A DNA stretch of 64,000 nt from an uncultured Solirubrobacteraceae bacterium (GTDB lineage: Bacteria > Actinomycetota > Thermoleophilia > Solirubrobacterales > Solirubrobacteraceae), in the NCBI GenBank assembly GCA_964588985.1, contig CAZPQW010000005.1:102681-166680 (forward strand), read 5' to 3'. Positions 1 through 27,778 of the stretch are shown here, piece by piece. Each line of letters opens with the position of its first letter. The stretch's first letter is position 1. The notes under the pieces were generated by a model, which saw only the letters and a program-made list of their open reading frames with translations, searched no databases and was not told the DNA's origin. Position numbers and translations under genes: made by a program.

Positions 1-1460
1 TCCTCCGCCGGCCGATCCGCCAGCTCGTGCCCGCGACCCTCGTGCGCGCGCGCCTGCACCAGCTCCCACCCCGGGCTTTCGCGTGTGTCCAGCAGCTTGC
101 CGGGATGGAAGTCCACGCGCGGGGTCACCGGGCGCGGCACGAAGTAGCCCAACGCCACCTGACCCGCGATCCGCTCCGCCGAGCCGAGCCGGCGCACGAC
201 GTCCTGCCCGCGCGGGTCCTGCTCGATCTGCTCCTGCAGCCGCTCGATCAGGTCGTCGATCAGCAGCGCCCCCTCCTCGCTCGAGGCGACCGCGCGCTTC
301 TGGTGGGAGACCATCCCGTGGAAGATGTCGCCGGTCGGATGCATGCCTTCGCCGCCGGTGCTCATCAGGCGCGCCATCAGCTGGCGTCTGCAGGTGACGT
401 GTGCGACCCACTCCGCACCGCACACCTGTACCGAGGTCATGCCCTCCAGGCCCGGCGCCGCCATCCAGTACGCGAGCGCGCGCATGTGCTGGGTGGGCAG
501 ATCGTCGCCGCGCACGAGCGGGAATTCGTCGAAGTCCTCGCGCTCGGTTGGGTAGATCACCACGCCGTCCTCGCGCCGGCGCAGCAGCCCTTCGCGCAGG
601 CCGCACGCGGTCAGCTCGGCCGCCTCGGAGAGGAAGTCCGACTCGAAGAACACGCGGTCGAAGGCGATTCCCAGCCGCTGCAGCGTCTTGCGCTGCCCCG
701 CGATCACCCACGCGCGCGTCTTGTACCAGAGCTCCAGCGCCTCGCGGTCCCCGGAGAGCACTCGCCGCAGCAGCTGGTCGGCGTCGTCGTCGCGCATCGT
801 CAGCTCGCGCGTGAGGGAGTCCTCGGGCTGCTCGGTGGAGCCACCGTTGAAGGATCGGCCCGCCGCGACGTACTCGGCGTAGCAGCAGCCCACGAAGTGG
901 TCGCTCTTCTCGTTGCGGTCCGGCCACGCCTGCGCGTGGCGGCCGCTCTTCATCACCCCGGCCATCGCCTCGCCCATGCTGCGCCCGGCGTCTGAGATCA
1001 GCGCGCGGCGCTCGACCTGGCCGCCGGCCTGGGTCAGGGCCGCGGCGAGCGCGTTGCCGATCGCGAGGTTGCGCAGGTGCCCGACGTGCAGCGCCTTGGT
1101 CGCGTTGGCGTCCCAGAACTGCACCGAGAAGCGTCGCCCGCGCGCGAGGTCGGAGAGCCGCTCCTCGCCGCTGTCGCCTTCCCGCAGCGCGGTCCCCTGA
1201 GTTTCGATCCAGTCGTCTGACAGCCGCAGCTCCACGCCCGCGTCGGTGCGCGTCGCGCGCTCTACCCACGGCTCGCGTTCGATCCGCTCGAGCGCGTCGA
1301 GCGATGCCGCGTCATCGCGCCAGACGGGTGAACGTGGGACGAGCTTGACGTCGAAGCGGGCGTTCGGACGCAGCGGCGTGCGGGCAGCCCACAGTCCGCC
1401 CGTCTCGCCCTGCTCGGGCAGTTCCTCGAAGTAGTCGAAAAGGTTGGTGGCCGTCAGCAT
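1..1460 (-). CDS. Divergent arginyl-tRNA synthetase paralog (class I aaRS), 3' end runs off the window
   Basis: Manual translation from ATG at 1460 is open to the window edge (486 codons; absent from the ORF track). MLTATNLF...SVQFWDANATKALHVGHLRNLAIG (HIGH motif), NEKSDHFVGCCY, LGIAFDRVFFESD, RGDDLPTQHMRALAYW, QVCGAEWVAH and FHGMVSHQKRAVASSEEG are collinear with ArgRS motifs. Confidence 0.9.
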   Translation of the reverse strand, partial: MLTATNLFDYFEELPEQGETGGLWAARTPLRPNARFDVKLVPRSPVWRDDAASLDALERIEREPWVERATRTDAGVELRLSDDWIETQGTALREGDSGEERLSDLARGRRFSVQFWDANATKALHVGHLRNLAIGNALAAALTQAGGQVERRALISDAGRSMGEAMAGVMKSGRHAQAWPDRNEKSDHFVGCCYAEYVAAGRSFNGGSTEQPEDSLTRELTMRDDDADQLLRRVLSGDREALELWYKTRAWVIAGQRKTLQRLGIAFDRVFFESDFLSEAAELTACGLREGLLRRREDGVVIYPTEREDFDEFPLVRGDDLPTQHMRALAYWMAAPGLEGMTSVQVCGAEWVAHVTCRRQLMARLMSTGGEGMHPTGDIFHGMVSHQKRAVASSEEGALLIDDLIERLQEQIEQDPRGQDVVRRLGSAERIAGQVALGYFVPRPVTPRVDFHPGKLLDTRESPGWELVQARAHEGRGHELADRPAE

Positions 1461-1468
1461 CTTGGTGA

Positions 1469-1488
1469 GGTCGGCGGTGGAGCCGACC
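1469..1488 (-). other. GC-rich hairpin between the tRNA 3' end and the aaRS start codon
   Basis: Minus strand GGTCGGC-tccacc-GCCGACC, 7-bp perfect stem. Confidence 0.6.
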
Positions 1489-1490
1489 GA

Positions 1491-1563
1491 TGCACCAGCC
1501 GGGGCTCGAACCCGGATCGACGGCGTTTAAGGCCGCTCCCTTAACCGATTAGGGCACTGGTGC
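1491..1563 (-). tRNA. Atypical tRNA, anticodon UAA (reads UUA), short variable loop, CCA not encoded
   Basis: Minus strand folds as a full cloverleaf: GCACCAG TG CCCT AATCGGTTA AGGG A GCGGC CT-TAA-AC GCCGT CGAT CCGGG TTCGAGC CCCGG CTGGTGC A (73 nt). U8, A14, G18G19, U33, purine 37 and TTCGA are all present. Confidence 0.93.
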
Positions 1564-1733
1564 TCAAAACCCGACAGCAACCAGCCGAGCTTCCGGTTTG
1601 GTTTGCGTAGTCGGGCTGCGGGGAGCACCATAAGGCTCGTCGTGGAGAACCGCACACTTCGAAAAACACCGGTAGGACAAGCCTCCAATACACAGGCAGG
1701 AAGGCCATTTTGAGCATGCACGAGGAGCAGCAC

Positions 1734-3137
1734 ATGTCTCTGTCTCTCCCCCCTGGCCCACGCATGCCGAGCGCGCTTCAGGCGCTCGGCTGGGCGCTGC
1801 GACCGCTGCCGTTCATGGAGCGCTGCAACAACCATTACGGTGAAATCTTCACCCTGCGCGTTCGTCGCGGTCGTCCCTGGGTTGTCCTCACGGATCCGGC
1901 GGATGTCAAGCTGCTGTTCACGACCGACGCGAGCGCGGTGCGCGCGGGAGCGGTCGCGGCCAGCCCGGTACTCGAGCCGCTGCTGGGCTCACGGTCGGTG
2001 ATGCTGCTCGACGAGCCCGAGCACATGACACACCGCAAGCTGATGCTGCCCGCGTTCCGCATCACGCGCATGAGCGCCTATGACAACCTGATCACCCGCG
2101 TGGCCCGTCGAGAGATCTCGAAGTGGCCGATCGGCGAGCCGTTCGCGCTGTGGCCGCGCATGCAGGCGATCACCACAGAGGTGATCCTCCGCGCCGTGTT
2201 CGGCCCTCTGGAGGAGCCCCGGTTGGAGCATCTGAGCGGCCTGCTGAGACAGATGACCGCGCAGCTGAACGATCCGCGCCGCCTGGCGATCCTGACCGCC
2301 GTGGGCCCGGGGCGACTCTCTCACAGCGAGCGACTTCGCTCGGTGATGCGCCCGGTGGAGAGCGCGGTGCTCGAGGAGGTGCGCCGACGGCGTGCTTCAC
2401 CCAACGGCGCAGCCTCGCAGGACATCCTCGCGATGCTCGAGCGCGCACACGACCAGGGTGGCTCGCCGATGGACGAGAAGCAGGTGCGCGACGAAGTCCT
2501 CACACTGCTCTCCGACGGTCCGACCGCCACCTCGCTCGCGTGGGCATTCGAGTGCCTCATGCGCCATCCCGAGAAGCTCGCCCGACTGCGCAAGGAGGCC
2601 CTCGCGGGTCGCGAGTACAGCTATGCGGACGCGGTCGCCAAGGAGACGCTGCGCCTGTGCCCGGTGGTGCCCCTGGTGATGCGCGAGCTGACCCAGCCGA
2701 TGCGCATCCGCGGCTACACGCTGCCCGCGGGAGTCATCGTCGCCGCGGGCGTTTACCTGATTCACCGTCGCGAGGACATCTATCCGCAATCGCGCACTTT
2801 CCTACCTGAGCGCTTCCTCGACCAGAACGCCCCCACCTACGCGTGGATTCCCTTCGGCGGAGGAGTGAGACGCTGCCTCGCGGCCAACTTCGCCCAGCTC
2901 ACGATCAGGCGAGTGATGCAGACCGTGCTCACCGAGGTGGACCTGCAGGCGGTCTCCACATCCGGATCCGAGCACGCGGCGAGAAGCTCAGTCGCGTTCG
3001 TCCCCAACGAGCAGGCGATGGCGATCGTCACTCGACGGATCGGATCTCCCACCGACGAGCGGCTCGAGGATCCGGTCGGCGACGAGACCGAGCGAGCCGA
3101 GGGTCGAGAATCCGGGGCCCTGGCCGAGGCCGGCTAG
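1734..3137 (+). CDS. Cytochrome P450 with atypical I-helix
   Basis: LPPGP N-terminus, ExxR (ETLR), PERF, heme motif FGGGVRRCLA. RBS GAGGAG precedes ATG 1734. Confidence 0.93.
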   Translation: MSLSLPPGPRMPSALQALGWALRPLPFMERCNNHYGEIFTLRVRRGRPWVVLTDPADVKLLFTTDASAVRAGAVAASPVLEPLLGSRSVMLLDEPEHMTHRKLMLPAFRITRMSAYDNLITRVARREISKWPIGEPFALWPRMQAITTEVILRAVFGPLEEPRLEHLSGLLRQMTAQLNDPRRLAILTAVGPGRLSHSERLRSVMRPVESAVLEEVRRRRASPNGAASQDILAMLERAHDQGGSPMDEKQVRDEVLTLLSDGPTATSLAWAFECLMRHPEKLARLRKEALAGREYSYADAVAKETLRLCPVVPLVMRELTQPMRIRGYTLPAGVIVAAGVYLIHRREDIYPQSRTFLPERFLDQNAPTYAWIPFGGGVRRCLAANFAQLTIRRVMQTVLTEVDLQAVSTSGSEHAARSSVAFVPNEQAMAIVTRRIGSPTDERLEDPVGDETERAEGRESGALAEAG

Positions 3138-4334
3138 CCCGGGCACCTGCAGCAGCGGGCGCACGCCGCTGAGCTCCAGGAATCGAGCCATGTTCACTTC
3201 TTCGCGTTTGTCGCCTTCCCAAAGCGGCCCGGTCACCCGTTCGATCTCGCGCCGCGCCGGATCGGACAGCAGACTGCGCAGCTGCTCGAGCAGATCGAAG
3301 CCGGTCGAGTTGATCACGTAGTCGTGGCGCGCCGTCTCGGCGCCCGCGACCGACTCGTAGTTGACGCACACCCCCTCGCCGTTCGGAGCGGACGCGATGC
3401 GCTCGACGCGCCCGAGCACGAAGCGACAGCGCTCGTCCCACGCGAAGCGCGCGAGACGCTCCGGCCCGAATACTCCGCGATCGGTGTGATTGATGAAGTC
3501 GCGACGCGTATCGACGCTGAGCGTCTCCCAGGCGACATTGTCGGGATTGGAGAAGACGCGATTCTCCAAGAAGCTCTCCAGCCGACTCAGAGGCAGATTG
3601 GAGGTGTACACCGATATGTACGCGTCGGGACGCAGGTTGCGCACGAATTCGATGCAGCTGAGCGCGCTCTCCCCGCCACCCACGATCGCGATGTCGGAGC
3701 TCTGCTCGACCGGCGCGTGCGCGATCGCGATGCGCCCGCTGTCGCAGTCGAGCACGCGCTGCGCGATCTGGGGATCATGGGGGATGCCGCGATTGACCCC
3801 GGGGCCGGTCAGCGCGAACGCCCCGCACGCGTACTGGGACGCGGCGGGCGCACCGGCGACGTCCACGATCCAGCGTTCGCCGTCGTCGCTCAGCGACAGT
3901 CGTGCGACACGCCCGTTGACGAGCGTCACTCCCTCGGTGGCGCGAGTGAGCACCCACGCAAGGTATGCGCCGTATTCGCGGCGCTGCACGGACGGTTCGC
4001 CGGCGTCCACCCAGCGTGAGTAGTCGCCTTTCTCGATCAGGTAGCGATGCCAGGAGAACGCCATCGACGCGATGTCCACTTCCGCTCCGGCGGAGCCGAA
4101 CGCGCATGCGCTCTGGTACGGGTAGCCGACGTCTTTGGAGGGGGTGATCGCGAGCACCTCCCTGCTCGTGGTGATGCCGTTTCCGTCGACCCACGCGGCC
4201 GCCGGCCCGGTCGCCTCGACGAGCGTCATCCTGATCGGACCCAGGCCGAGACTGTTGAGCACGTGCACCTTCATCGCGATCGCGGTGCCCTTGGCTCCGG
4301 CGCCGACGACGAGCAGGTCGGTGTTGTTCACCAC
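2988..4334 (-). CDS. Flavin-dependent lysine/ornithine N-monooxygenase (MbtG/IucD/SidA family)
   Basis: VVGAGAKG FAD motif, TPSKDVGYPY, IVGGGESA NADPH motif, TDRGVF and GQGPGF, collinear with mycobacterial MbtG. GTG start at 4334 or 4331 inferred. Confidence 0.88.
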   Translation of the reverse strand: MVNNTDLLVVGAGAKGTAIAMKVHVLNSLGLGPIRMTLVEATGPAAAWVDGNGITTSREVLAITPSKDVGYPYQSACAFGSAGAEVDIASMAFSWHRYLIEKGDYSRWVDAGEPSVQRREYGAYLAWVLTRATEGVTLVNGRVARLSLSDDGERWIVDVAGAPAASQYACGAFALTGPGVNRGIPHDPQIAQRVLDCDSGRIAIAHAPVEQSSDIAIVGGGESALSCIEFVRNLRPDAYISVYTSNLPLSRLESFLENRVFSNPDNVAWETLSVDTRRDFINHTDRGVFGPERLARFAWDERCRFVLGRVERIASAPNGEGVCVNYESVAGAETARHDYVINSTGFDLLEQLRSLLSDPARREIERVTGPLWEGDKREEVNMARFLELSGVRPLLQVPGLAGLGQGPGFSTLGSLGLVADRILEPLVGGRSDPSSDDRHRLLVGDERD

Positions 4335-4413
4335 GTCGCAGATCCTCCGGTCGAAGCTTGTCGTGCTCTCGTGCAAACGGCACGCCGAGTTATAGGGAGA
4401 AGGGCGACGTGGC

Positions 4414-4992
4414 TCAATGTGAGACCGGAACGCTCCCCCCGCAGGTCGGGCAAACCACCGTGTTCGCGTCGGCATCCGGCGTGGACGGATCGCTCCCGTC
4501 GTTTCCATCACCGGCTTTGAGCGCACGGCGGCGGCCGCGCAGTTCCGCGCGGAGGTCCGCGACCGACAGTTTGTCGGCGCTCGCTCGCGCCAGCCAGTGG
4601 TCCTGGATCGCGACATCCAGCGCCGCGACCGTCGCGTGGTGACTCCAGGAGAGATTCTCCCTACGTCGGGAGATGTCGAAGCGCGACGCGACGTACACCA
4701 TGTTCATCAGGGATTGGACGTCGTATCCGGTGAGCTTCACCGCTCTCGTGTAGCGCTCGCCGAAGCGCGCGTTGCCGTAGTTGATCCAGTCGCCCAGCCA
4801 CCATTGGCTGCAGCGACCGATCTCGCCGAAGCGACGCCCCAACGCCGACCACTCGGCCAGGCCGACCTCGCCGCCGGGAACCCAGCCCACCTGTGTCAGC
4901 TCTGGAGTAGTCCGCGCCGGCCTCACATGAGGTCGTTCACGCGCAGTCGCTTGCCCGGCACCGTCTGTCGTCTGTGACAAGGCGGAAGTCAC
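4414..4992 (-). CDS. LmbU-family transcriptional regulator
   Basis: WWLGDWINYG..RFGERY..A...TGYDVQSLMN..YVASRF..SRRRENLSWSHHA.VAAL signature. Strong RBS GAGGAGG before GTG. Confidence 0.85.
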   Translation of the reverse strand: MTSALSQTTDGAGQATARERPHVRPARTTPELTQVGWVPGGEVGLAEWSALGRRFGEIGRCSQWWLGDWINYGNARFGERYTRAVKLTGYDVQSLMNMVYVASRFDISRRRENLSWSHHATVAALDVAIQDHWLARASADKLSVADLRAELRGRRRALKAGDGNDGSDPSTPDADANTVVCPTCGGSVPVSH

Positions 4993-5184: not shown

Positions 5185-6486
5185 TCAGTCGTTCGCGGTG
5201 ACGGTCTCGAGCAGCTCCGCGAAGCGCTCACGCGAGCGCGCGCGGCGCGTCGGCAGGTGTTCGCTCGGCACACCGTCCGCGGGTGGCGCGTAGCCGTTGA
5301 GGATGTGGCGCGCGACGGACTGGCGGTGCACCTCGTCGGGACCGTCGTAGATGCGCGCGGCGCGCGCGAAACGATACATCTGCTCGAGCGGCAGGTCGGT
5401 GGAGTAGCCGAGCGAGCCGTGCAACTGCAGCGCCCGATCGACCACGTCGTGGAGCACCTTCGCGCCGTAGAACTTGATCAGCGCGACGTCGGTGCGCGCG
5501 GCGCTCGCGCCCTGTGTGTCCATCACCCACGCGGCGTGCAGCGTCATCAGGCGTGCGGCCTGCATCTCGGCGGCGCTGTCGGCGATCCAGTTCTGCACGG
5601 TCTGCTTCTGCGCGAGCAGCGAGCCGTGGGCTTCTCTATATGTGGCGCGCTCGCACATCATGTCGAACGCGCGGCGCGCGACCCCGAGCCAGCGCATGCA
5701 GTGGTGGATGCGCCCGGGCCCGAGGCGGTGCTGGGCGAGCACGAAGCCCTCGCCCTCGCCGCCGAGCAGCGCCTCCGGGCCGACGCGCACGTCGCTGTAG
5801 AGGATTTCCGAGTGCCCGCCGTAGCCGCCGAAGTGCTCCGCGGGGTGCTCCATCGTGGGGACGTCGCGCACGATGTCGACGCCCGGCATGTCACTCGGGA
5901 CGATGAACATGGACGCGCGCTGCGACGGTCGCGCGTCGGGGTTGGTGACGGCCATCACGATCAGGAAGTCGGCGATCGAGCCGTTGGAGGAGAACCACTT
6001 CTTGCCGTCGAGCACCCAGCCGTCGCCGTCGCGCACCGCGCGCGTCTTCAGCTGCGTGGGGTCGGAGCCCGGCGTGTGCGGCTCGGTCATCGAGAACGCG
6101 CTGCGCAGGTCGCCCGCGAGCAGCGGGTGCAGCCAGCGGTCCTTCTGCTCGGGCGTGCCCGCCATAGCGAGGATCTCCGAGTTGCCGGAGTCCGGCGCGG
6201 CGTTGCCGAACGCGAGCGGCGCGATCGGCGAGGTGCCGAGGATCTCGTGCATCAGCCCGAGCTTCACCTGCCCCATCCCCTGGCCGCCGAGCTCGGGCGG
6301 CAGATGCGTCGCCCACAGCCCGCGCGCCTTGACCTGCTCCTGCAGCGGCGCGATCGCACGGCTGAGGCCATCGAGACCCAGCTCCGGCCAGATCGCCTCC
6401 AGCGGCCAGATCTCGGTGCGCACGAACTCCGCCATCCAGTCGAGCTGCTCCTGGTAGTCGGCGTCGGTGGAGAAGTCCCAGCTCAT
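5185..6486 (-). CDS. Acyl-CoA dehydrogenase
   Basis: FSMTEP..GSD, GKKWFSSNG, RLGPGRIHHCMR, RIYDGPDEVH. Start MSWDFST. Confidence 0.93.
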   Translation of the reverse strand: MSWDFSTDADYQEQLDWMAEFVRTEIWPLEAIWPELGLDGLSRAIAPLQEQVKARGLWATHLPPELGGQGMGQVKLGLMHEILGTSPIAPLAFGNAAPDSGNSEILAMAGTPEQKDRWLHPLLAGDLRSAFSMTEPHTPGSDPTQLKTRAVRDGDGWVLDGKKWFSSNGSIADFLIVMAVTNPDARPSQRASMFIVPSDMPGVDIVRDVPTMEHPAEHFGGYGGHSEILYSDVRVGPEALLGGEGEGFVLAQHRLGPGRIHHCMRWLGVARRAFDMMCERATYREAHGSLLAQKQTVQNWIADSAAEMQAARLMTLHAAWVMDTQGASAARTDVALIKFYGAKVLHDVVDRALQLHGSLGYSTDLPLEQMYRFARAARIYDGPDEVHRQSVARHILNGYAPPADGVPSEHLPTRRARSRERFAELLETVTAND

Positions 6487-6592
6487 GGCGTGGCGTCCTT
6501 TCGTTCGGGGCCTGGCGGTGCTGTGCCTGCAAGCGTACGTGCTATCAACCCAAGCGCAACGCTTTCCACCATCTCGAACAAGGAGCCGCCAC

Positions 6593-6988
6593 ATGAGCAC
6601 CACCGAGCAGCTGGTCACGGGCGTCGACTTCGTCTCTGTACCCACCGGCGATCTCGCCGCCTCCGTCGAGTTCTACGGCGACACGTTGGGCCTGCGCCGC
6701 TCGGTGTACATGCCCGACCGCAACTTCGCGGAGTTCGAGACCGGCAACCTCACACTGAGTGTCGTTCACGCGGAGAAGATGGGGATCCCGCACTGCGTGA
6801 ACCAGAACGCGATCGCGCTGCACGTCGACGACGTCGAAGCGACCCGCGCGACGCTCGAAGCACGCGGCGTGAGCTTCCAGGGAGACACGTTCGACACGAG
6901 CGTCTGCCACATGGCGTTCTTCACCGACCCCTACGGCAACGCGCTGATGCTCCACCACCGCTACGCACCGCGCAACCCCGAGTCCTAG
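6593..6988 (+). CDS. VOC/glyoxalase family protein
   Basis: DLAASVEFYGDTLGL, ALHVDDVEA, FFTDPYGNALMLH. Confidence 0.88.
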   Translation: MSTTEQLVTGVDFVSVPTGDLAASVEFYGDTLGLRRSVYMPDRNFAEFETGNLTLSVVHAEKMGIPHCVNQNAIALHVDDVEATRATLEARGVSFQGDTFDTSVCHMAFFTDPYGNALMLHHRYAPRNPES

Positions 6989-7052
6989 ACGCACCTACAC
7001 GTCGCCACCGCGCCCTTATATTGAGCGGATGGCTGGGCCCGGACCATTGGAG

Positions 7053-7868
7053 ATGTCGCTCCTGCCGGGAGCGCGCGAGCTGCTCGACGCGCACGCCGCG
7101 GCGCTGCCCCAGCGCGACGATCTTTGCGGCGCGTTCTGCGGCGCGCTGGCGCTGAGCGCGGCGGGGTTCCGCGAGCGCGGCGGGGAGCCCGTAGATCAGG
7201 ACGCGGTGGGGCTGGCCGCGGGGAGCATCGTGTCGACAGCCGGCGCGCGCGATCCGGGCACGCTCCCGCACGGCGAACCGGGCCGGCGCGACTACCGCCT
7301 GGCGATCCCCGAGATCGAGGACGCCGACGTGTCCGGCACGACGTGCTCGGGTGTGATCGACGCGATCGCGGAGCTCTCCGACGGCGCGCTGGAGGCGATC
7401 CCTTTCAGCGGCCCGTGGACGGCGGAGACGCTCGGCGGCCTCTACGACGTGGCCGCCGAGCTGAAGCGCCCGGTGACGTTGATCGCGAACTTCGCCACCC
7501 ACCACCTGTGGGGCGGGTCCGCTCGGTTCGACCAGCTGCTGGGCTATCTGCTCGACGGCGAGCGAGCAGGGCCTGAGCCGGACTGGCGCGTGGGCCACTT
7601 CGCGTGCGTGTTCGGACGCGTGCGCGGGCCGCGCGGGAACCTTTACGGCGTCGCCGACACCTACCCCGCGCTCGGCGACCATGGCGTGCACATGCAGCCG
7701 CAGGAGCGTCTCGCGGCGGCGCTCGAGCGGCGCGACATGCCGGCGGGCGGGATGATCGTGGTGGCGTTTGCCGACGACGCGGGCGCGATCCGCGCGGGCG
7801 CGGGCGCCGTGGGACTGAGCGAGGGCCTGTGGGACAACGGGACCGTGACGCAGGCGACGCTCGGGTGA
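7053..7868 (+). CDS. Hypothetical protein, possible papain-like (Cys-His-Asp) enzyme
   Basis: PQRDDLCGAF...VGHF...VADTYP spacing resembles C39/phytochelatin-synthase-like catalytic motifs. Its stop overlaps the next start (GTGA). Confidence 0.6.
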   Translation: MSLLPGARELLDAHAAALPQRDDLCGAFCGALALSAAGFRERGGEPVDQDAVGLAAGSIVSTAGARDPGTLPHGEPGRRDYRLAIPEIEDADVSGTTCSGVIDAIAELSDGALEAIPFSGPWTAETLGGLYDVAAELKRPVTLIANFATHHLWGGSARFDQLLGYLLDGERAGPEPDWRVGHFACVFGRVRGPRGNLYGVADTYPALGDHGVHMQPQERLAAALERRDMPAGGMIVVAFADDAGAIRAGAGAVGLSEGLWDNGTVTQATLG

Positions 7869-9178
7869 GCGAGCGGGAGCTCGTATCGCTCGTCTGCTGC
7901 GACCTCGGCGCGATCGTGCGAGGACGCTCGCTGTTCTCGTCCGAGCTGACCGAGGCCGAAGCGTCGGGCATCGGCTGGGTGCCGGCGAACCACGCGCTCA
8001 CGCCGCTCGGCCCGGTGGCGGAGACCAACCCGTATGGGTCGACCGGGGATCTGCGCCTGCTGCCCGACCCCGCCACCCGGGTGCGTGTGGAGGAGGGCCC
8101 CGGCGGTGGCGCGCTGGAGCTACTGCTGTGCGACATCGTGGAGACCGACGGGCGTCCTTGGGAGTGCTGCCCGCGGCAGTTCCTACGCGAGGCGCTGCGC
8201 GAGCTGGAGAGCGAGATCGGCGGCCGGCTCGTGGCGAGCTTCGAGCACGAGTTTCAACTTCTAGAGGACTCGTCCGCTGCGCTCCCGTTCTCACTCGAGG
8301 CGCAGCGACGTGGCGAGCCGTTTGCCACGCGCGCGATGGGCGCGCTCACACAGGCGGGCGTGGAACCGGAGCGGATATTCCCCGAGTACGCGCCGCACCA
8401 GTTCGAGATTCCGGTGGCGCCGGCGGAGGGCGTCGCGAGCGCGGATCGTTCGGTGGTGCTGAGGGAGGTGGTGCGCGAGGTCGCGCGCCGTGAGGGGAAA
8501 CGCGCGAGCTTCGCGCCGCTGCTCGACGTGGCGCAGGCGGGCAACGGCGTGCACATCCACCTGAGCGTGATCGACCGCGATGGCGCGCCGTTGTTCTACG
8601 ACCCCGTGCGTCGCGCGCACCTGAGCGAGACGGGCGAGCGCTTCGCGGCGGGCATCCTCGCGCACGCGCACGCGTTGACCGCGCTCACGGCGCCGAGTCC
8701 GGTGTCCGCCACGCGCCTCCAGCCGCACCGCTGGAGCGCGGGCGCGATGTGCCTGGCGGTGCAGAACCGCGAAGCGCTGCTGCGAATCCCTCCGCTCGTG
8801 GAGCTGGCGGGCGCGGACCCCGCTCGCCAGCTGCGCCTGGAGTACCGCGGCGCGGACGCGGCGGCGAACCCCTACCTGGCGCTCGGCGCGCTCGTGCGTG
8901 CAGGGCTCGACGGGGTGCGCTCGCAGATGCCCGCGCCGCCGATCCTCGACTGCGACCCGGCGGAGCTGGAAGGACCCGAGGTGGAGCGCTTCGGTGTGGG
9001 CTCGCTGCCGGACTCGCTGGAGGAGTCGATGCGGGCGCTCACCGAGAACGCGACCGCGCGCTCGTGGATGGGGTCGCTGCTGTACGAGGCGTACGTGAGC
9101 GTCAAGCAGGCCGAGATCGAGGCGGCGCGCGATGTCGACCTGAAGGAGCTGTGCGCGCGCTATGCCGCGATCTACTGA
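7865..9178 (+). CDS. Glutamine synthetase-like gamma-glutamyl ligase
   Basis: SFEHEF, EYAPHQFEI, GNGVHIHLS, NREALLRIP, LEYRGADAAANPY. Confidence 0.9.
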   Translation: MSERELVSLVCCDLGAIVRGRSLFSSELTEAEASGIGWVPANHALTPLGPVAETNPYGSTGDLRLLPDPATRVRVEEGPGGGALELLLCDIVETDGRPWECCPRQFLREALRELESEIGGRLVASFEHEFQLLEDSSAALPFSLEAQRRGEPFATRAMGALTQAGVEPERIFPEYAPHQFEIPVAPAEGVASADRSVVLREVVREVARREGKRASFAPLLDVAQAGNGVHIHLSVIDRDGAPLFYDPVRRAHLSETGERFAAGILAHAHALTALTAPSPVSATRLQPHRWSAGAMCLAVQNREALLRIPPLVELAGADPARQLRLEYRGADAAANPYLALGALVRAGLDGVRSQMPAPPILDCDPAELEGPEVERFGVGSLPDSLEESMRALTENATARSWMGSLLYEAYVSVKQAEIEAARDVDLKELCARYAAIY

Positions 9179-10352
9179 CGTCGTGCTCGAGCGGCTGCTC
9201 GAGGGGATCGAGCGAGAGAGTCCGCGCGCCGTGGAGCTGCGCCACCGGCTGCACTCAGGGCCCGAGTTGGCGGGCGCCGAGAAGCGGACCGCGGCGATGG
9301 TCGCGGCGGAGCTGCCGGTGGCGAGCGAGACGGCGGCGGCAACAGGGCTGCTCGCCCGGGTGGGACCGGCCGATGGCACGCCGATCGCGGTGCGCGCGGA
9401 GCTGGACGGGCTGCCGGTGCGCGAGCGCACGGGCGCGGCGTTCAGCGCGAGCGGCGAGACGATGCACGCGTGCGGGCACGATGTGCACATGGCAGCGCTT
9501 GTGGCGCTCGCCCGCGCCGCATACTCAATTGAGGAGGATCTACCCGCCCCGCTGCTCGCGGTGTTCCAGCCGAGCGAGGAGGTGCACCCCTCCGGTGCGA
9601 AAGCGCTCGTCGAGGGCGCGCTCGCGGACGCGGCGCCGAAGGCGGTCCTCGCCGCGCACGTCCATCCGGAACTGCCGTGGGGCGAGGTGGCGCTCGACCC
9701 TGGGGCTGTGAACGCGTCGTTCGACGGGTTCGAGATCGTCGTCGAGGGCGAGCCCTCACACGGCGCCTACCCGCACCTGGGACGCGACCCGATCCTCGCG
9801 CTCGCGCAGGTGGTGGTCGCGCTGCACGCGCAGGTCGCGCGGCGGATGGACCCGATGCATCCGACGGTGCTGACGGTGGGCGTGGTGGAGGGCGGGAGCA
9901 CGGAGAACGTGATCCCCGAGCGCGCGAGCGCGCGGGGCGCGCTGCGGTCGCTGCGGGCGGAGGACCGCCTGGCGTTGCGTGAGCTGGTTGAGGAGGTCGT
10001 GACGGGTGTGACAGCCGCGCACGGCTGCCGCGGCGGCGTGTCGTTCGTGGCGGGGGAGCCGGTGTTGGAGAACGACCCGCGCATCGTGGCGGAGGCGTGC
10101 GGGCTGCTCGCCAGTGCCGGCCTTGCACCAGCCCCCGAGTGGCGCTCGTGCGGGTCGGACGACTTCGCCTTCTTCGGCGCGCTCGCGCCGGTGGCGATGG
10201 CCTTCGTGGGGCTCGACGGCGCGGCGGGCTTTCGGTCGCGGCCGCTTCACCACCCGGAGCTGCTCCCGCCCGACGAGGCGGTTGATGCGATCGCGCGCGT
10301 GCAGGCTGTGCTGTATGTGGCGGCGGCGCACTCCTTGCGGCAAGCCGACTGA
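9162..10352 (+). CDS. M20 family amidohydrolase
   Basis: RAELDGLP, MHACGHDVH, FQPSEE, SHGAYPH, GSDDF. Confidence 0.92.
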   Translation: MPRSTDVVLERLLEGIERESPRAVELRHRLHSGPELAGAEKRTAAMVAAELPVASETAAATGLLARVGPADGTPIAVRAELDGLPVRERTGAAFSASGETMHACGHDVHMAALVALARAAYSIEEDLPAPLLAVFQPSEEVHPSGAKALVEGALADAAPKAVLAAHVHPELPWGEVALDPGAVNASFDGFEIVVEGEPSHGAYPHLGRDPILALAQVVVALHAQVARRMDPMHPTVLTVGVVEGGSTENVIPERASARGALRSLRAEDRLALRELVEEVVTGVTAAHGCRGGVSFVAGEPVLENDPRIVAEACGLLASAGLAPAPEWRSCGSDDFAFFGALAPVAMAFVGLDGAAGFRSRPLHHPELLPPDEAVDAIARVQAVLYVAAAHSLRQAD

Positions 10353-10377
10353 GCGCACCGCTGGCTACGATGAGGCG

Positions 10378-10926
10378 GTGCCCGATCGCCTGTACTTCAC
10401 GGACTCCGACGAGGCCAACGCGCTGATTGCGAGCGACCCGATGGCGCTGCTGATCGGCTTTAGCCTCGATCAACAGGTTTCGGTGCAGAAGGCGTTCGCC
10501 GGCCCGCTGACGATCCGCGAGCGCCTCGGCTCGATCGACCCGAAGGACCTGGCGGCAGCCGACCTCGAGCCGGTGTTCCGCGAGAAACCGGCTGTCCACC
10601 GCTTCCCGGGGGCGATGGCCAAGCGCGTGCACGACCTGGCGGTGCATGTGGTGGAGCGGTACGACGGGGACGCGGCGCGTGTGTGGGGCGACGCGAAGAA
10701 CGCGAGCGCGCTGCGCGCCAACCTCGAGGCGCTGCCCGGGTTCGGCGAGATGAAGGTGAAGGCGCTCGGGTCGGTGCTCGCCAAGCGCTACAAACTGGCG
10801 AAGGCCAAGAGCCTCGTCCCACCGCACCCCACCCTCGGCGACGTGGACTCGCCGCAGGCGCTGCTCGACTACCAGGCCGAAAAGCGCGCCCACAAGGCGG
10901 AGTGGTCGAAGCTCAAAGCGCAGTAG
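10378..10926 (+). CDS. HhH-GPD-type base excision repair protein
   Basis: DPMALLIGFSLDQQV, HRFPGAMAKRV, LPGFGEMK. GTG start inferred. Confidence 0.82.
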   Translation: MPDRLYFTDSDEANALIASDPMALLIGFSLDQQVSVQKAFAGPLTIRERLGSIDPKDLAAADLEPVFREKPAVHRFPGAMAKRVHDLAVHVVERYDGDAARVWGDAKNASALRANLEALPGFGEMKVKALGSVLAKRYKLAKAKSLVPPHPTLGDVDSPQALLDYQAEKRAHKAEWSKLKAQ

Positions 10927-12098
10927 CCATCGCGGCTCCTGACGCACCCGTCGACGCCCCCACGGGCATCGGAGCGTCGACGGGCCTGTTCATCGCTGCG
11001 CTGTTCGCGTTCATCGCGACCGGCGCGGCGCTGCCGGTGCTGCCCACGTACGTGCACGGCCCGCTGCACTCGGGGGACATCGCGGTGGGGATCGTGGTGG
11101 GCTCGTTCGCCGTCACCTCGGTGGTGTGCCGGCCGATCGCGGGGCGCCAGGCGGACAGGCGCGGACGGCGCGCGGTGCTCGTCGCGGGCTCGCTCGCGCT
11201 CGCGCTCGGCGGGCTGCTGTACATCTTCTCCAGCAGCGTGATCACACTGGTGCTCGCGCGGCTGATGGTCGGCGCGGGCGAGGGATCGGTGTACACCGCG
11301 GGCGCCACCTGGGTGGTGGACCTCGCGCCCGTCAACCGCCGCGGGCTCGCGCTCGGCATGTTCGGCCTCGCGGTGTGGGGCGGGCTGTCGCTGGGGCCGG
11401 TCGCGGGCGAGCTGCTGCGATCGAGCTCCGGCTATGACGCGGTGTGGATCCTGACCGCCGCCCTGCCACTCGCCGGGGCGGCGATCGCGGTGCGCCTGCC
11501 CGAACCGTCGCGTCCGCCGCAGTCCGGGCGGCCGATACCGCTGCTGCACTTCCCGCGATCGGCCCGCCGCCCGGCGTTCGCGCTGGCGCTCGCCAACATC
11601 GGCTACGCGGCGCTCGCGGGGTTCATCGTGCTCGACCTGCGCAAGCAGGGGATCGGCGGCGGCGCGACGGTGTTCACCGCGTTCGCGGTGTCGGTGTTCG
11701 CGAGCCGGCTGATCTTCGGGCGCGTTCCGGACCGTTTCGGAGCGCGTGTCACAGCCACCGGCGCCGGGCTCGTCGAGGCGCTCGGGCTGATCGTGATCGC
11801 GCTCGCGCACTCGCTGCCCGTGGCGCTGCTCGGAGCGATAGTCGTCGGCGCGGGCTTCTCGATGATGTTCCCCTCGCTCGCGCTGATGGTGGTAGACGAC
11901 GTCCACGACGAGCACCGCGGCTCGGCGATGGGCACTTTCACCGCGTTCTTCGACATCGGCGTAGGCGCGGGAGGTCCGCTGTCGGGGGCGACCGCGTCGC
12001 TCGCCGGCTACCCCGCGGTGTTCGTGCTCGCATCCGTCGCAGCGCTCGGCACCGCCGGACTCGCCGCCATGACGCCGCGCCGCCCTCCCGAGCAGTAA
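10902..12098 (+). CDS. MFS transporter
   Basis: Multiple hydrophobic helices, motif [11 protein letters not shown] and [10 protein letters not shown]. Start uncertain (GTG 10902 or a non-canonical start near 10929). Confidence 0.85.
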
Positions 12099-27705: not shown

Positions 27706-27778
27706 TGGCGAGACCGGGACTCGAACCCGGGACACCACGATTTTCAGTCGTGTGCTCTACCAGCTGAGCTATCTCGCC
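27706..27778 (-). tRNA. tRNA-Phe(GAA)
   Basis: GGCGAGATAGCTCAGCTGGTAGAGCACACGACTGAAAATCGTGGTGTCCCGGGTTCGAGTCCCGGTCTCGCCA, a canonical cloverleaf. Confidence 0.97.

Follow-up and report, generated by a model that had tools for sequence, protein, structure and literature searches.

At the left end of a 64,000-nt stretch of DNA from an uncultured soil bacterium of the Solirubrobacteraceae (hereafter the window), a tRNA gene with the anticodon UAA lies next to a diverged paralog of arginyl-tRNA synthetase (ArgRS). The two genes were found to be co-inherited in related bacteria, together with a cassette of biosynthetic genes. Our best reading, which we hold tentatively, is that they form a dedicated synthetase/tRNA pair feeding a pathway off the ribosome. 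Common to this reading and to its strongest rival, in which the ribosome is the consumer, would be a pair orthogonal to ArgRS that serves an amino acid of the p-aminophenylalanine family made by its operon partners.

The window corresponds to G000:C5:102681-166680, where G000 is the source genome (3.41 Mb, 95.9% complete). Labels of the type G### denote genomes, those of the type L### related stretches, and P0001 the paralog of this genome.

The private tRNA

The features at this end of the window are as follows.

Window 1-1460, minus strand: ArgRS-derived paralog, first 486 of 557 aa, start ATG at 1460
Window 1491-1563, minus strand: class I tRNA of 73 nt, anticodon UAA (ARAGORN); A73 as discriminator, U20, CCA not encoded
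Window 1564-1709: divergent spacer of 146 nt between the tRNA and a cytochrome P450 gene (boundaries from the open reading frame (ORF) and the tRNA)

A preliminary description of this DNA had placed the tRNA 30 nt upstream of the paralog on the same strand, and this spacing proved to be exact. The tRNA matched the Rfam tRNA family (RF00005) over its full length with 65.2 bits (E 1e-12; gathering score 29), and its minimum-energy fold was a clean cloverleaf. A scan of window 1300-1900 matched no sigma-70-like promoter and no intrinsic terminator.

The variable region of the tRNA has 4 nt. This places it in class I, unlike the long-arm tRNA-Leu of bacteria. The tRNA-Leu genes of the same genome are 84-88 nt long, as against 73 nt for the private tRNA, which has no class II long arm. 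Its closest relative within G000 was tRNA-Arg(CCU). The normal counterparts of both members of the pair, which the preliminary description had expected elsewhere in the genome, were present. An ordinary long-arm tRNA-Leu(UAA) of 87 nt was found on contig C1, and a canonical argS was found on contig C4.

In an alignment of 35 distinct tRNAs of the family, 99.5% of the cells were paired, and seven pairs showed compensatory changes. None of 500 shuffles scored as high, and slid controls gave 31-51% pairing. The acceptor stem (GCACCAG/CUGGUGC) was fixed in 34 UAA sequences, including G1-C72 and C2-G71. The AGU sequence carried a swap at 6:67 together with G1.U72, and further 6:67 swaps were seen in UGU-type relatives. 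A73 was invariant in the 35 aligned tRNAs and the T arm and U20 were invariant or nearly so; the D stem and the anticodon stem varied.

The base after G18G19 in the D-loop was an invariant U, and position 35 was A or G. C35 is an identity mark of tRNA-Arg. A20 is a major identity element of the same tRNA (PMC3956977). Having neither A20 nor C35, the private tRNA should be ignored by the canonical ArgRS.

An ArgRS paralog with a rebuilt pocket

The reading frame of the paralog continued for 213 nt beyond the left edge of the window, where the rest of the enzyme had been predicted to lie; the whole gene (G000:C5:102467-104140) encodes 557 aa. It scored 27.9 bits with PF00750 and 83.9 bits with TIGR00456, for which the cut-off is 261.65. 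The canonical argS of G000 scored 390.1 bits with the latter model.

A profile of 60 family members aligned with residues 132-603 of yeast ArgRS, including the C-terminal anticodon-binding region, and the paralog profile also aligned with the N-terminal domain of the bacterial ArgRS 6ao8 (residues 23-180). As judged by sequence alignment, on which the statements about the domains and the pocket are based, the paralog appears to have kept the class I HIGH motif and the ArgRS domain order (N-terminal domain, Rossmann core and C-terminal anticodon-binding domain). HVGH was invariant in 60 of 60 aligned members, and K122, which precedes it, was nearly invariant. In some ArgRSs, such a lysine before HIGH replaces the missing KMSKS.

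In E. coli ArgRS the guanidinium group is bound by D118, Y313 and D317 (E148, Y347 and D351 in yeast), Q341 (yeast Q375) binds the main chain, and the mutations D118A and D317A abolish arginine binding (PMC3956977). The equivalents of the triad in the paralog were Q114, Q324 and A328 (S or T in some members), and W351 stood in place of Q341/Q375, with N119 and HVGH kept. This bore out the remodeled amino-acid pocket of the preliminary description.

The full set of pocket residues was Q114/W116/D117/N119/Q324/A328/W351. The Q/Q/A (S, T) triad was found in all 85 sequences of the UAA and AGU clades that were aligned; the sole UGU-type sequence in the pocket alignment (L094) has N114, i.e. an N/Q/A triad. 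The paralog looks catalytically competent, yet unable to bind arginine in the known way.

Conservation of the pair and the cassette

The best 120 of 2,308 protein matches to the paralog were 65-97% identical to it and came mostly from Solirubrobacteraceae metagenome bins. Their length was 445-587 aa, and 115 of these 120 had at least 551 aa. At 50% clustering, 202 representatives matched at E 1e-30 or better. The distribution was patchy: the paralog was found in 4 of 101 genomes of the own family, 5 of 61 of the sister family and 3 of 401 of the class.

The tRNA census covered 80 paralog loci from genome contigs (the carriers in the same search were 247 stretches). Gene occurrence was counted in a set of 82 loci, and 19 family loci from metagenome contigs made up a second locus set. 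Because G071, G446, G496, G506 and G518 are possibly also among the genome-contig loci, counts are given per search and never summed.

A tRNA of the same body lay beside the paralog in 72 of the 80 genome-contig loci. Seven of the eight misses were cut by contig ends; the other (L059) has full flanks. The metagenome-contig loci had an adjacent tRNA in 16 of 19 cases. The pairing is not due to chance, and the tRNA and the paralog are a co-inherited, dedicated pair, as had been proposed.

The cassette around the pair was conserved in about 100 Solirubrobacterales loci. Its genes and neighbors occurred in the 82 loci as follows.

PabAB: 73/82
GNAT: 73/82
P450: 72/82
CM_2: 71/82
HDAC-like deacetylase: 70/82
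Flavoenzyme: 53/82
203-aa gene: 47/82
LmbU: 22/82
Acyl-CoA dehydrogenase: 19/82
GlnA-like, DUF6885, M20 and other neighbors at window 6467-12098: at most 10/82 each

The LmbU regulator, which the preliminary description had counted as a part of the system, is by these figures a clade-specific neighbor outside the core.

One tRNA body with several anticodons

The homologous loci kept the tRNA, as had been anticipated, but not a fixed anticodon. Among the 80 genome-contig loci the anticodon was UAA in 67 and AGU in four, and one (L051) had an 8-nt loop, 'UAAA'. Among the 19 metagenome-contig loci it was UGU in 12, UAA in one, UCU in two and CCU in one, and three had no tRNA; the UCU and CCU loci are distant paralogs with other tRNA bodies. 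UGU was also carried by G446 and G518, and UAA by G506, a member of the same genus as G446.

In G496, a C-G-closed GCAA tetraloop replaced the anticodon loop in an RNA of 72 nt with the discriminator G. This genome had near-full-length matches to all eight cassette genes, those to the HDAC, the P450 and the flavoenzyme extending over ~79-92% of the G000 ORFs. Only two of the family tRNAs examined departed from the architecture of U33, 7-nt loop and A37. In the paralog tree, the UCU type was the outgroup, a UGU locus was basal, UAA formed the main clade, and the AGU clade was nested inside it.

Paralogs of the UAA and UGU types did not differ at any of 44 conserved columns (residues 401-557), and the AGU paralog copies differed at 2 columns each in this region. 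Co-variation of the anticodon-binding domain with the anticodon was thus not seen. Taken with the occurrence of several anticodons on one tRNA body, the identity of the UAA and UGU types at these columns suggested that the paralog does not read the anticodon bases, and the anticodon seems to be dispensable for it.

The loci of the AGU clade (L046, L050, L054 and L057) each hold two copies of the paralog, which are 76% identical and have the same pocket residues. Only the second copy adjoins the tRNA(AGU), and no second tRNA was found within 10 kb.

A second type of paralog/tRNA unit, with the anticodon UCU, was found in L092, L093, L109 (genus g41), L115 and L236 (G521). Its order, checked in L092, L093 and L109, is tRNA(UCU), paralog, one or two methyltransferases and a gene resembling ATP-grasp L-amino-acid ligases. 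The tRNA(UCU) is without A20 and has G1.U72. The UCU-type paralogs are 33-39% identical to P0001, with the pocket residues D114, C116, H324 and V328. This unit may work differently.

Avoidance of the matching codons

UUA was the rarest codon in G000, as stated in the preliminary description for such genomes. It made up 105 of ~773,000 codons and was seven times rarer than the next. Under the off-ribosome reading, UAA would be a local optimum among anticodons, in that every single-base neighbor reads a stop or a codon at least 8 times commoner. Normal tRNAs with the same anticodon coexisted with the private one in three of three genomes checked, namely Leu(UAA) in G000 and G071 and Thr(UGU) in G446.

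The codons matching the anticodons of the private tRNA were compared between cassette types.

ACA, share of A-ending codons in cassette genes: UAA type 0.0615, UGU type 0.0079, AGU type 0.0652
ACT, share of T-ending codons in cassette genes: UAA type 0.0251, UGU type 0.0413, AGU type 0.0103

ACA was depleted in the UGU type relative to the UAA type (odds ratio 0.12, Fisher p 2e-11), and ACT in the AGU type relative to the UAA type (odds ratio 0.40, p 0.006). A depletion of ACT over the whole AGU-type loci was rejected as not specific; it was specific only within the cassette genes.

Genome samples of ~0.2-0.4 Mb from each of five genomes of one family with similar GC3 gave the following frequencies of ACA.

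G446, UGU carrier: 0.43 per 1000
G518, UGU carrier: 0.28 per 1000
G506, UAA carrier of the same genus as G446: 1.00 per 1000
G419, non-carrier: 1.21 per 1000
G470, non-carrier: 1.13 per 1000

For TTA in UAA carriers and non-carriers, the counts of 5-15 per sample were too low to tell a depletion.

An extra tRNA bearing the normal amino acid gives no reason to shun the codon. We infer from the avoidance that the tRNA carries something other than the normal residue and reaches the ribosome, to which the charged tRNA seems to be visible.

The TTA-rich or conserved-TTA target foreseen in the preliminary description did not appear, either in the cassette families or at the comparable TTA sites of the genome. 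TTA was not enriched in the cassette genes (0.13 per 1000 overall, 0-0.45 per 1000 per family). No conserved TTA site (UAA type) or ACA site (UGU type) was found in nine cassette gene families; the sites were scattered, and any one was shared by at most four related loci. Of the TTA sites of G000, 12 of 94 could be compared with homologues, and 0 of 12 were TTA there, a test of low power outside the cassette; at eight of the 12 the homologues had the Leu codon CTG or CTC. As a separate observation, PabAB has TTA as its last sense codon (residue 726, C5:100290-100295, where the GNAT gene adjoins) in G000 alone.

The partner genes

The divergent P450 gene, the N-hydroxylase-like gene and the LmbU-family ORF that the preliminary description had listed to the right of the pair were matched by PF00067, PDB entry 4d7e and, just below its cut-off, NF038070, respectively. 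Most of the conserved partners lie to the left of the window.

Left of the window, 4-nt overlap with the paralog: fused PabA-PabB aminodeoxychorismate synthase, 726 aa (GATase, Anth_synt_I_N, Chorismate_bind)
Left of the window, ~G000:C5:99778-100293: small, single-domain GNAT
Left of the window, ~G000:C5:98819-99787: HDAC-fold, acetylpolyamine-amidohydrolase-like deacetylase
Left of the window, G000:C5:98532-98822: CM_2 (PF01817) chorismate-mutase-like protein
Left of the window, G000:C5:97927-98535: 203-aa candidate prephenate decarboxylase
Window 1710-3137, plus strand: cytochrome P450, core cassette member (PF00067, E 4.5e-53)
Window 2988-4616, minus strand: flavin-dependent amine N-hydroxylase-like enzyme (PF13434, E 2.2e-10; PF13454)

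PabAB scored 417.8 bits with TIGR01823, just under the cut-off of 442.55, and 339.3 bits with TIGR00553 (pabB), above the cut-off of 328.4. It is one of three chorismate-binding enzymes in G000 and therefore an extra copy. The best NCBIfam match of the CM_2 protein was TIGR01803 ('CM-like') with 65.5 bits against a cut-off of 73.35; its substrate is not readable from the sequence. The GNAT proteins have 146-182 aa, and their weak best matches were N-acetyltransferases of amino-acid-like antimetabolites. For the deacetylase, the orthologue in L046 had acetylpolyamine amidohydrolases as the best PDB matches (E 5.5e-33).

The 203-aa protein had no match in Pfam, NCBIfam or PDB. Among its atlas neighbors was a PF00800 cluster labeled 'prephenate decarboxylase' (score 0.96), no more than a lead. 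The one gene of the prephenate-dehydrogenase type (PDH_N) in G000 is on contig C6, away from the cassette.

The best PDB match of the P450 was 3dbg ('putative cytochrome P450', E 5e-31), and others were of the CYP120, CYP51 and CYP4 types. The flavoenzyme matched 4d7e ('L-Lys monooxygenase', E 1.8e-63) with residues 100-518 against 3-413 of the chain, and appears to be homologous to Lys/Orn N-hydroxylases across the whole catalytic core. Its true start is probably ~90-100 codons inside the longest ORF. When the longest ORFs are taken, the P450 gene and the flavoenzyme gene, which converge, have 150 nt in common at the 3' ends (window 2988-3137).

In relatives from metagenome contigs the order tRNA, paralog, PabAB, GNAT, deacetylase, CM_2 and P450 was collinear (L094, L099-L101, L104, L106 and L108). 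Such a single operon, found in UGU-type relatives, is the cassette in its simplest form. Among the collinear UGU-type loci, L106 and L094 extend beyond the P450, and in both of them, as in G496, the flavoenzyme came next. The P450 adjoins the tRNA in UAA-type loci. In G000 it is divergent from the tRNA, the segment of P450 and flavoenzyme being inverted on the other side of it.

A possible route from chorismate to a charged tRNA

PabAB and a mutase make up the first half of the p-aminophenylalanine route in chloramphenicol and pristinamycin producers. By sequence, the partner genes point to a residue of the 4-amino-4-deoxychorismate / p-aminophenylalanine type. The claim that the neighbors make a non-standard amino acid stood in part. 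The pair does sit among such genes, but N-hydroxylysine or N-hydroxyornithine as the product was set aside, because the conserved partners (PabAB, GNAT, deacetylase, CM_2 and the possible prephenate decarboxylase) are chorismate-pathway genes, most of which lie beyond the left edge of the window. Chemistry on a distal side-chain amine would suit both the lysine-hydroxylase-like flavoenzyme and the deacetylase of the acetylpolyamine type.

In the scheme that we propose, PabAB and the CM_2 protein would convert chorismate to 4-amino-4-deoxyprephenate. A possible BacA-like decarboxylase may act next in the G000 clade, and the product would be an amino acid of the p-aminophenylalanine family. The GNAT/deacetylase pair, the N-hydroxylase and the P450 would then act on the side-chain amine and the ring.

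The paralog, with the ArgRS chassis and the ATP motif kept and arginine recognition lost, would load the new amino acid, or a close derivative of it, on the private tRNA, and the missing A20 and C35 would insulate the pair from the canonical ArgRS. The aminoacyl-tRNA would serve mainly to donate or carry the activated residue for a product made off the ribosome, and the transfer might be made by the paralog itself, in the manner of SbzA, or by the GNAT. Since the charged tRNA would be able to enter the ribosome, we propose that the anticodon is held on very rare codons and that the host genes purge the matching codon.

A combination of amine N-hydroxylase and N-acetyltransferase is the usual route to siderophore hydroxamates, and hydroxamates inhibit HDAC-fold enzymes. 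As a speculation, the HDAC-fold deacetylase could process an aryl-hydroxamate residue or serve in self-protection against it. The aspartate-to-nitrite route for diazo chemistry was also considered, and was dropped because none of the cassette ORFs scanned gave a match to a lyase family.

Weighing of the explanations

Four observations favor the use of the charged tRNA off the ribosome. The G496 lineage with the tetraloop keeps an intact cassette; the paralog is apparently indifferent to the anticodon; the distribution is patchy, like that of a biosynthetic gene cluster, with regulator, exporter and resistance-like neighbors in the G000 clade (LmbU-type regulator, MFS, glyoxalase-like); and SbzA provides a precedent of an enzyme resembling an aminoacyl-tRNA synthetase (aaRS) that both charges and transfers. 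SbzA is class I, with HIGH and KMSKS kept, and moves Ile from Ile-tRNA to a metabolite (PMC6331615). It is possible that the paralog itself has such a transferase role. Several results weigh against off-ribosome use. Synthesis and charging of an amino acid with the ribosome as the consumer, as in pylTSBCD, can explain every gene of the cassette, and a decodable 7-nt loop that was a mere hazard might have been lost in more lineages than it was. None of the recognized aminoacyl-tRNA-dependent transferases (cyclodipeptide synthases (CDPS), double-GNAT FemX-like enzymes, LanB/peptide aminoacyl-tRNA ligase (PEARL) enzymes) was found among the cassette ORFs scanned with Pfam. A PapC-type dehydrogenase is missing from the cassette, and the P450 had no close PDB match to hydroxylases of carrier-bound amino acids, so that this role was rejected. 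The codon tests come from few, related lineages with crude ORF calls, and they do not fix the direction of cause. The codon AGA was common (5.0 per 1000) in four pooled UCU-type loci (L092, L093, L109 and L115), which shows that the avoidance does not extend to every branch of the wider family.

The preliminary description had left a choice between insertion at UUA codons and a carrier role. Contact with the ribosome is supported by the codon avoidance; neither a target codon nor a separate transferase was found. Sense-codon recoding or programmed mistranslation is, in our judgment, a less likely explanation than off-ribosome use. It holds that the cassette is pylTSBCD-like and that the ribosome inserts the new amino acid at a rare codon (UUA in G000, ACA or ACU in other clades), the private tRNA competing with the normal Leu or Thr tRNA. 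The operon order of tRNA, synthetase and biosynthesis genes, the lack of a separate aminoacyl-tRNA transferase among the scanned ORFs, the loop architecture kept in nearly all family tRNAs and the reciprocal, codon-specific avoidance in cassette genes and genome samples all agree with it. There is also a precedent in tRNAProX, of which one body carries AGC, AGU or AUU beside ProRSx, and which mistranslates in E. coli reporters (PMC10404621). On the other hand, the intact cassette of G496 goes with a non-decoding tetraloop and L051 has an 8-nt loop; no target site is conserved or enriched in the cassette genes, and none of the comparable TTA sites of G000 is kept in homologues; and the normal tRNAs of the same anticodon would make the decoding ambiguous. 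Eight genes would also be a large investment in a random substitution without evident benefit. In its strongest form, which we consider doubtful, this explanation describes a cassette that moves horizontally and, in nature, adds a p-aminophenylalanine-type residue, possibly N-oxygenated or N-acetylated, to the genetic code at the rarest sense codon of the host; the codon so assigned would have changed between ACA, UUA and ACU in different lineages, which would have purged it from their genomes.

The other explanations were found to be still weaker. It is improbable that the paralog is a transferase or ligase by which an ordinary amino acid on the private tRNA, charged by a housekeeping enzyme or by the paralog, is passed to an aminophenyl-type compound of the neighbors with SbzA-like amide formation, the remodeled pocket binding the acceptor. 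Besides SbzA (PMC6331615), the fixed acceptor stem with G1-C72 and C2-G71 would agree with it, and an ArgRS-derived ligase would keep a tRNA cofactor, since enzymes of the ArgRS type require tRNA for substrate activation (PMC3956977). But the anticodon differs between clades that share the cassette, and a housekeeping synthetase that reads it would load different amino acids; the private tRNA lacks the long arm for Leu and A20 and C35 for Arg; and the codon avoidance implies a residue that differs from the normal meaning of the codon. Modification of the tRNA elsewhere than at the 3' end, or an RNA that is a regulatory decoy, is very improbable. Paralogs of aaRSs that modify tRNA are known, such as GluQRS, which adds glutamate onto an anticodon base of tRNA-Asp and is without an anticodon-binding domain (PMC9437257). 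Unlike GluQRS, the paralog keeps the full ArgRS length and the N- and C-terminal tRNA-binding regions, and an anticodon loop that varies, and is absent in G496, cannot be a fixed site of modification. We give the least credence to a spare, LeuRS-charged tRNA-Leu(UAA) acting as a bldA-like decoder beside a drifting or antibiotic-resistant ArgRS duplicate. The ARAGORN label of tRNA-Leu, the rarity of UUA and A73 fit it. Against it stand the class I body closest to tRNA-Arg, the Thr anticodons or tetraloop on the same body in sister lineages, the long-arm tRNA-Leu(UAA) already present, the co-inheritance with a seven-gene pathway, and the loss of the two acidic residues that hold arginine; in E. 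coli ArgRS, a change of either to alanine abolishes the binding (PMC3956977).

Neighboring genes and other observations

The remaining features of the window are as follows.

Window 4414-4992, minus strand: putative LmbU-family regulator, clade-specific neighbor (NF038070, E 1.7e-35; 122.5 bits, just under the cut-off of 125)
Window 5185-6645, minus strand: acyl-CoA-dehydrogenase-fold flavoenzyme, clade-specific (Pfam Acyl-CoA_dh_1/M/N; NCBIfam matches all below cut-offs)
Window 6467-12098, plus strand: glyoxalase/bleomycin-resistance-like protein, DUF6885, glutamine-synthetase-like protein, M20 peptidase, HhH-GPD and MFS transporter (Pfam)
Window 27706-27778, minus strand: ordinary tRNA-Phe(GAA)

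The neighborhood at 6467-12098 was shared with the closest relatives only.

In 32 of 82 loci, and also in L094 and L237, there is a PQQ-like beta-propeller protein of ~534 aa, often as the last member of the cassette. Its homologue in G000 lies on the same contig at C5:42753-44174, 58 kb away. Beyond the cassette, at G000:C5:95191-97900 (L003:2191-4900), come genes for a MurD2-like ligase (Mur_ligase_M/C) and for a UDP-MurNAc-L-Ala-L-Glu epimerase resembling MurL, with an NF041275 match of 423 bits (cut-off 700); they were present in 15-17 of 82 loci. MurD2/MurL is an alternative route to the D-Glu of peptidoglycan, known from Xanthomonads and met here in an actinobacterium.

An odd tRNA-like gene of 96-97 nt was found at G000:C27:31243-31339, in G071 (L193) and at G446:C1:1736055-1736150. 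ARAGORN labeled it '???', with a four-base anticodon 'ggag' in G000 and G071, and the Rfam tRNA model gave 65-67 bits in G071 and G446. The gene is conserved across genera and may be tRNA-Sec-like or another odd tRNA.

Comparison with known systems

Very few natural dedicated synthetase/tRNA pairs are known (for example pyrrolysine, ProRSx/tRNAProX and CysRS*/SelC*), and they are the raw material of genetic-code change. What is added here is an ArgRS-derived pair that is accompanied by a putative pathway to an aromatic amino acid outside the proteinogenic set and has a codon-usage footprint that tracks the anticodon. The cassette may supply an antibiotic-like pathway, or it may serve to introduce a new amino acid into proteins. 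In the former case, a biosynthetic cluster would bring its own tRNA as an acyl carrier, this tRNA being naturally insulated from translation by anticodons for rare codons, by the purging of codons and, in the end, by loss of the anticodon loop. In the latter case, the cassette would parallel in nature the engineered '21-amino-acid bacterium', which reportedly makes and encodes p-aminophenylalanine. Either way, the pair would offer synthetic biology a naturally orthogonal class I pair, and a lead to new chemistry in uncultured Solirubrobacterales.

The preliminary description knew of no system of this composition, and our literature search agreed with it. An ArgRS paralog with its own tRNA, or such a cassette, was not found in the open full-text literature, to which subscription papers and supplements do not belong. 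By term look-up, no such system appeared in the accessible parts of a 2022 review of aaRS paralogs (PMC9437257) and a 2026 review of aminoacyl-tRNA-dependent natural products (PMC12945691).

Among the closest known systems is ProRSx/tRNAProX (tRNAProA, ProT and ProN) of Streptomyces and Kitasatospora (PMC10404621, PMC9437257). There as here, an aaRS paralog stands beside a tRNA of the parental body with a foreign sense anticodon that varies between lineages, AGU included; the hosts are high-GC actinobacteria, and the normal isoacceptor coexists. Unlike the present paralog, whose arginine-binding residues appear to be lost, ProRSx still uses proline, and it stands without biosynthetic genes. 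Here the pocket is rebuilt, a seven-gene amino-acid operon is attached, the parent is ArgRS/tRNA-Arg, and one lineage is without an anticodon loop. Mistranslation has been demonstrated for ProX, whereas here it would be a prediction.

In pylTSBCD the tRNA comes first, followed by a dedicated synthetase and the biosynthesis genes, in a portable unit of patchy distribution with a stop-codon anticodon and conserved in-frame target codons. The present cassette likewise combines a tRNA, a dedicated synthetase and amino-acid biosynthesis genes in one unit. Unlike pylTSBCD, it has sense anticodons that vary, no conserved target codon, and a class I synthetase of the ArgRS family.

PapABC resembles the cassette in its fused PabA-PabB, and probably in a small AroQ-type mutase, beside tailoring oxygenases. 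The cassette differs in having no PapC-type dehydrogenase, in place of which the G000 clade has a possible non-aromatising decarboxylase, and in activation by an aaRS/tRNA pair instead of an adenylation domain of a nonribosomal peptide synthetase.

The use of an aminoacyl-tRNA as a donor in a small-molecule cluster would be shared with SbzA, VlmL/VlmA, DhpH, PacB, CDPS and PEARLs (PMC12945691, PMC6331615). Unlike those systems, which appear to draw on housekeeping tRNAs, this cluster brings its own tRNA, and no FemX-like, CDPS or LanB-like enzyme was among the cassette ORFs scanned. CysRS*/SelC* of Desulfobacterales is a further case of a diverged aaRS paralog coupled to its own tRNA beside the normal pair; it uses a standard amino acid, decodes UGA and has its own elongation factor (PMC9437257), and no gene for such a factor was seen here. 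By these comparisons, the system belongs with the aaRS-paralog/tRNA pairs and the aminoacyl-tRNA-dependent pathways, and that it should be a categorically new kind of system appears unlikely.

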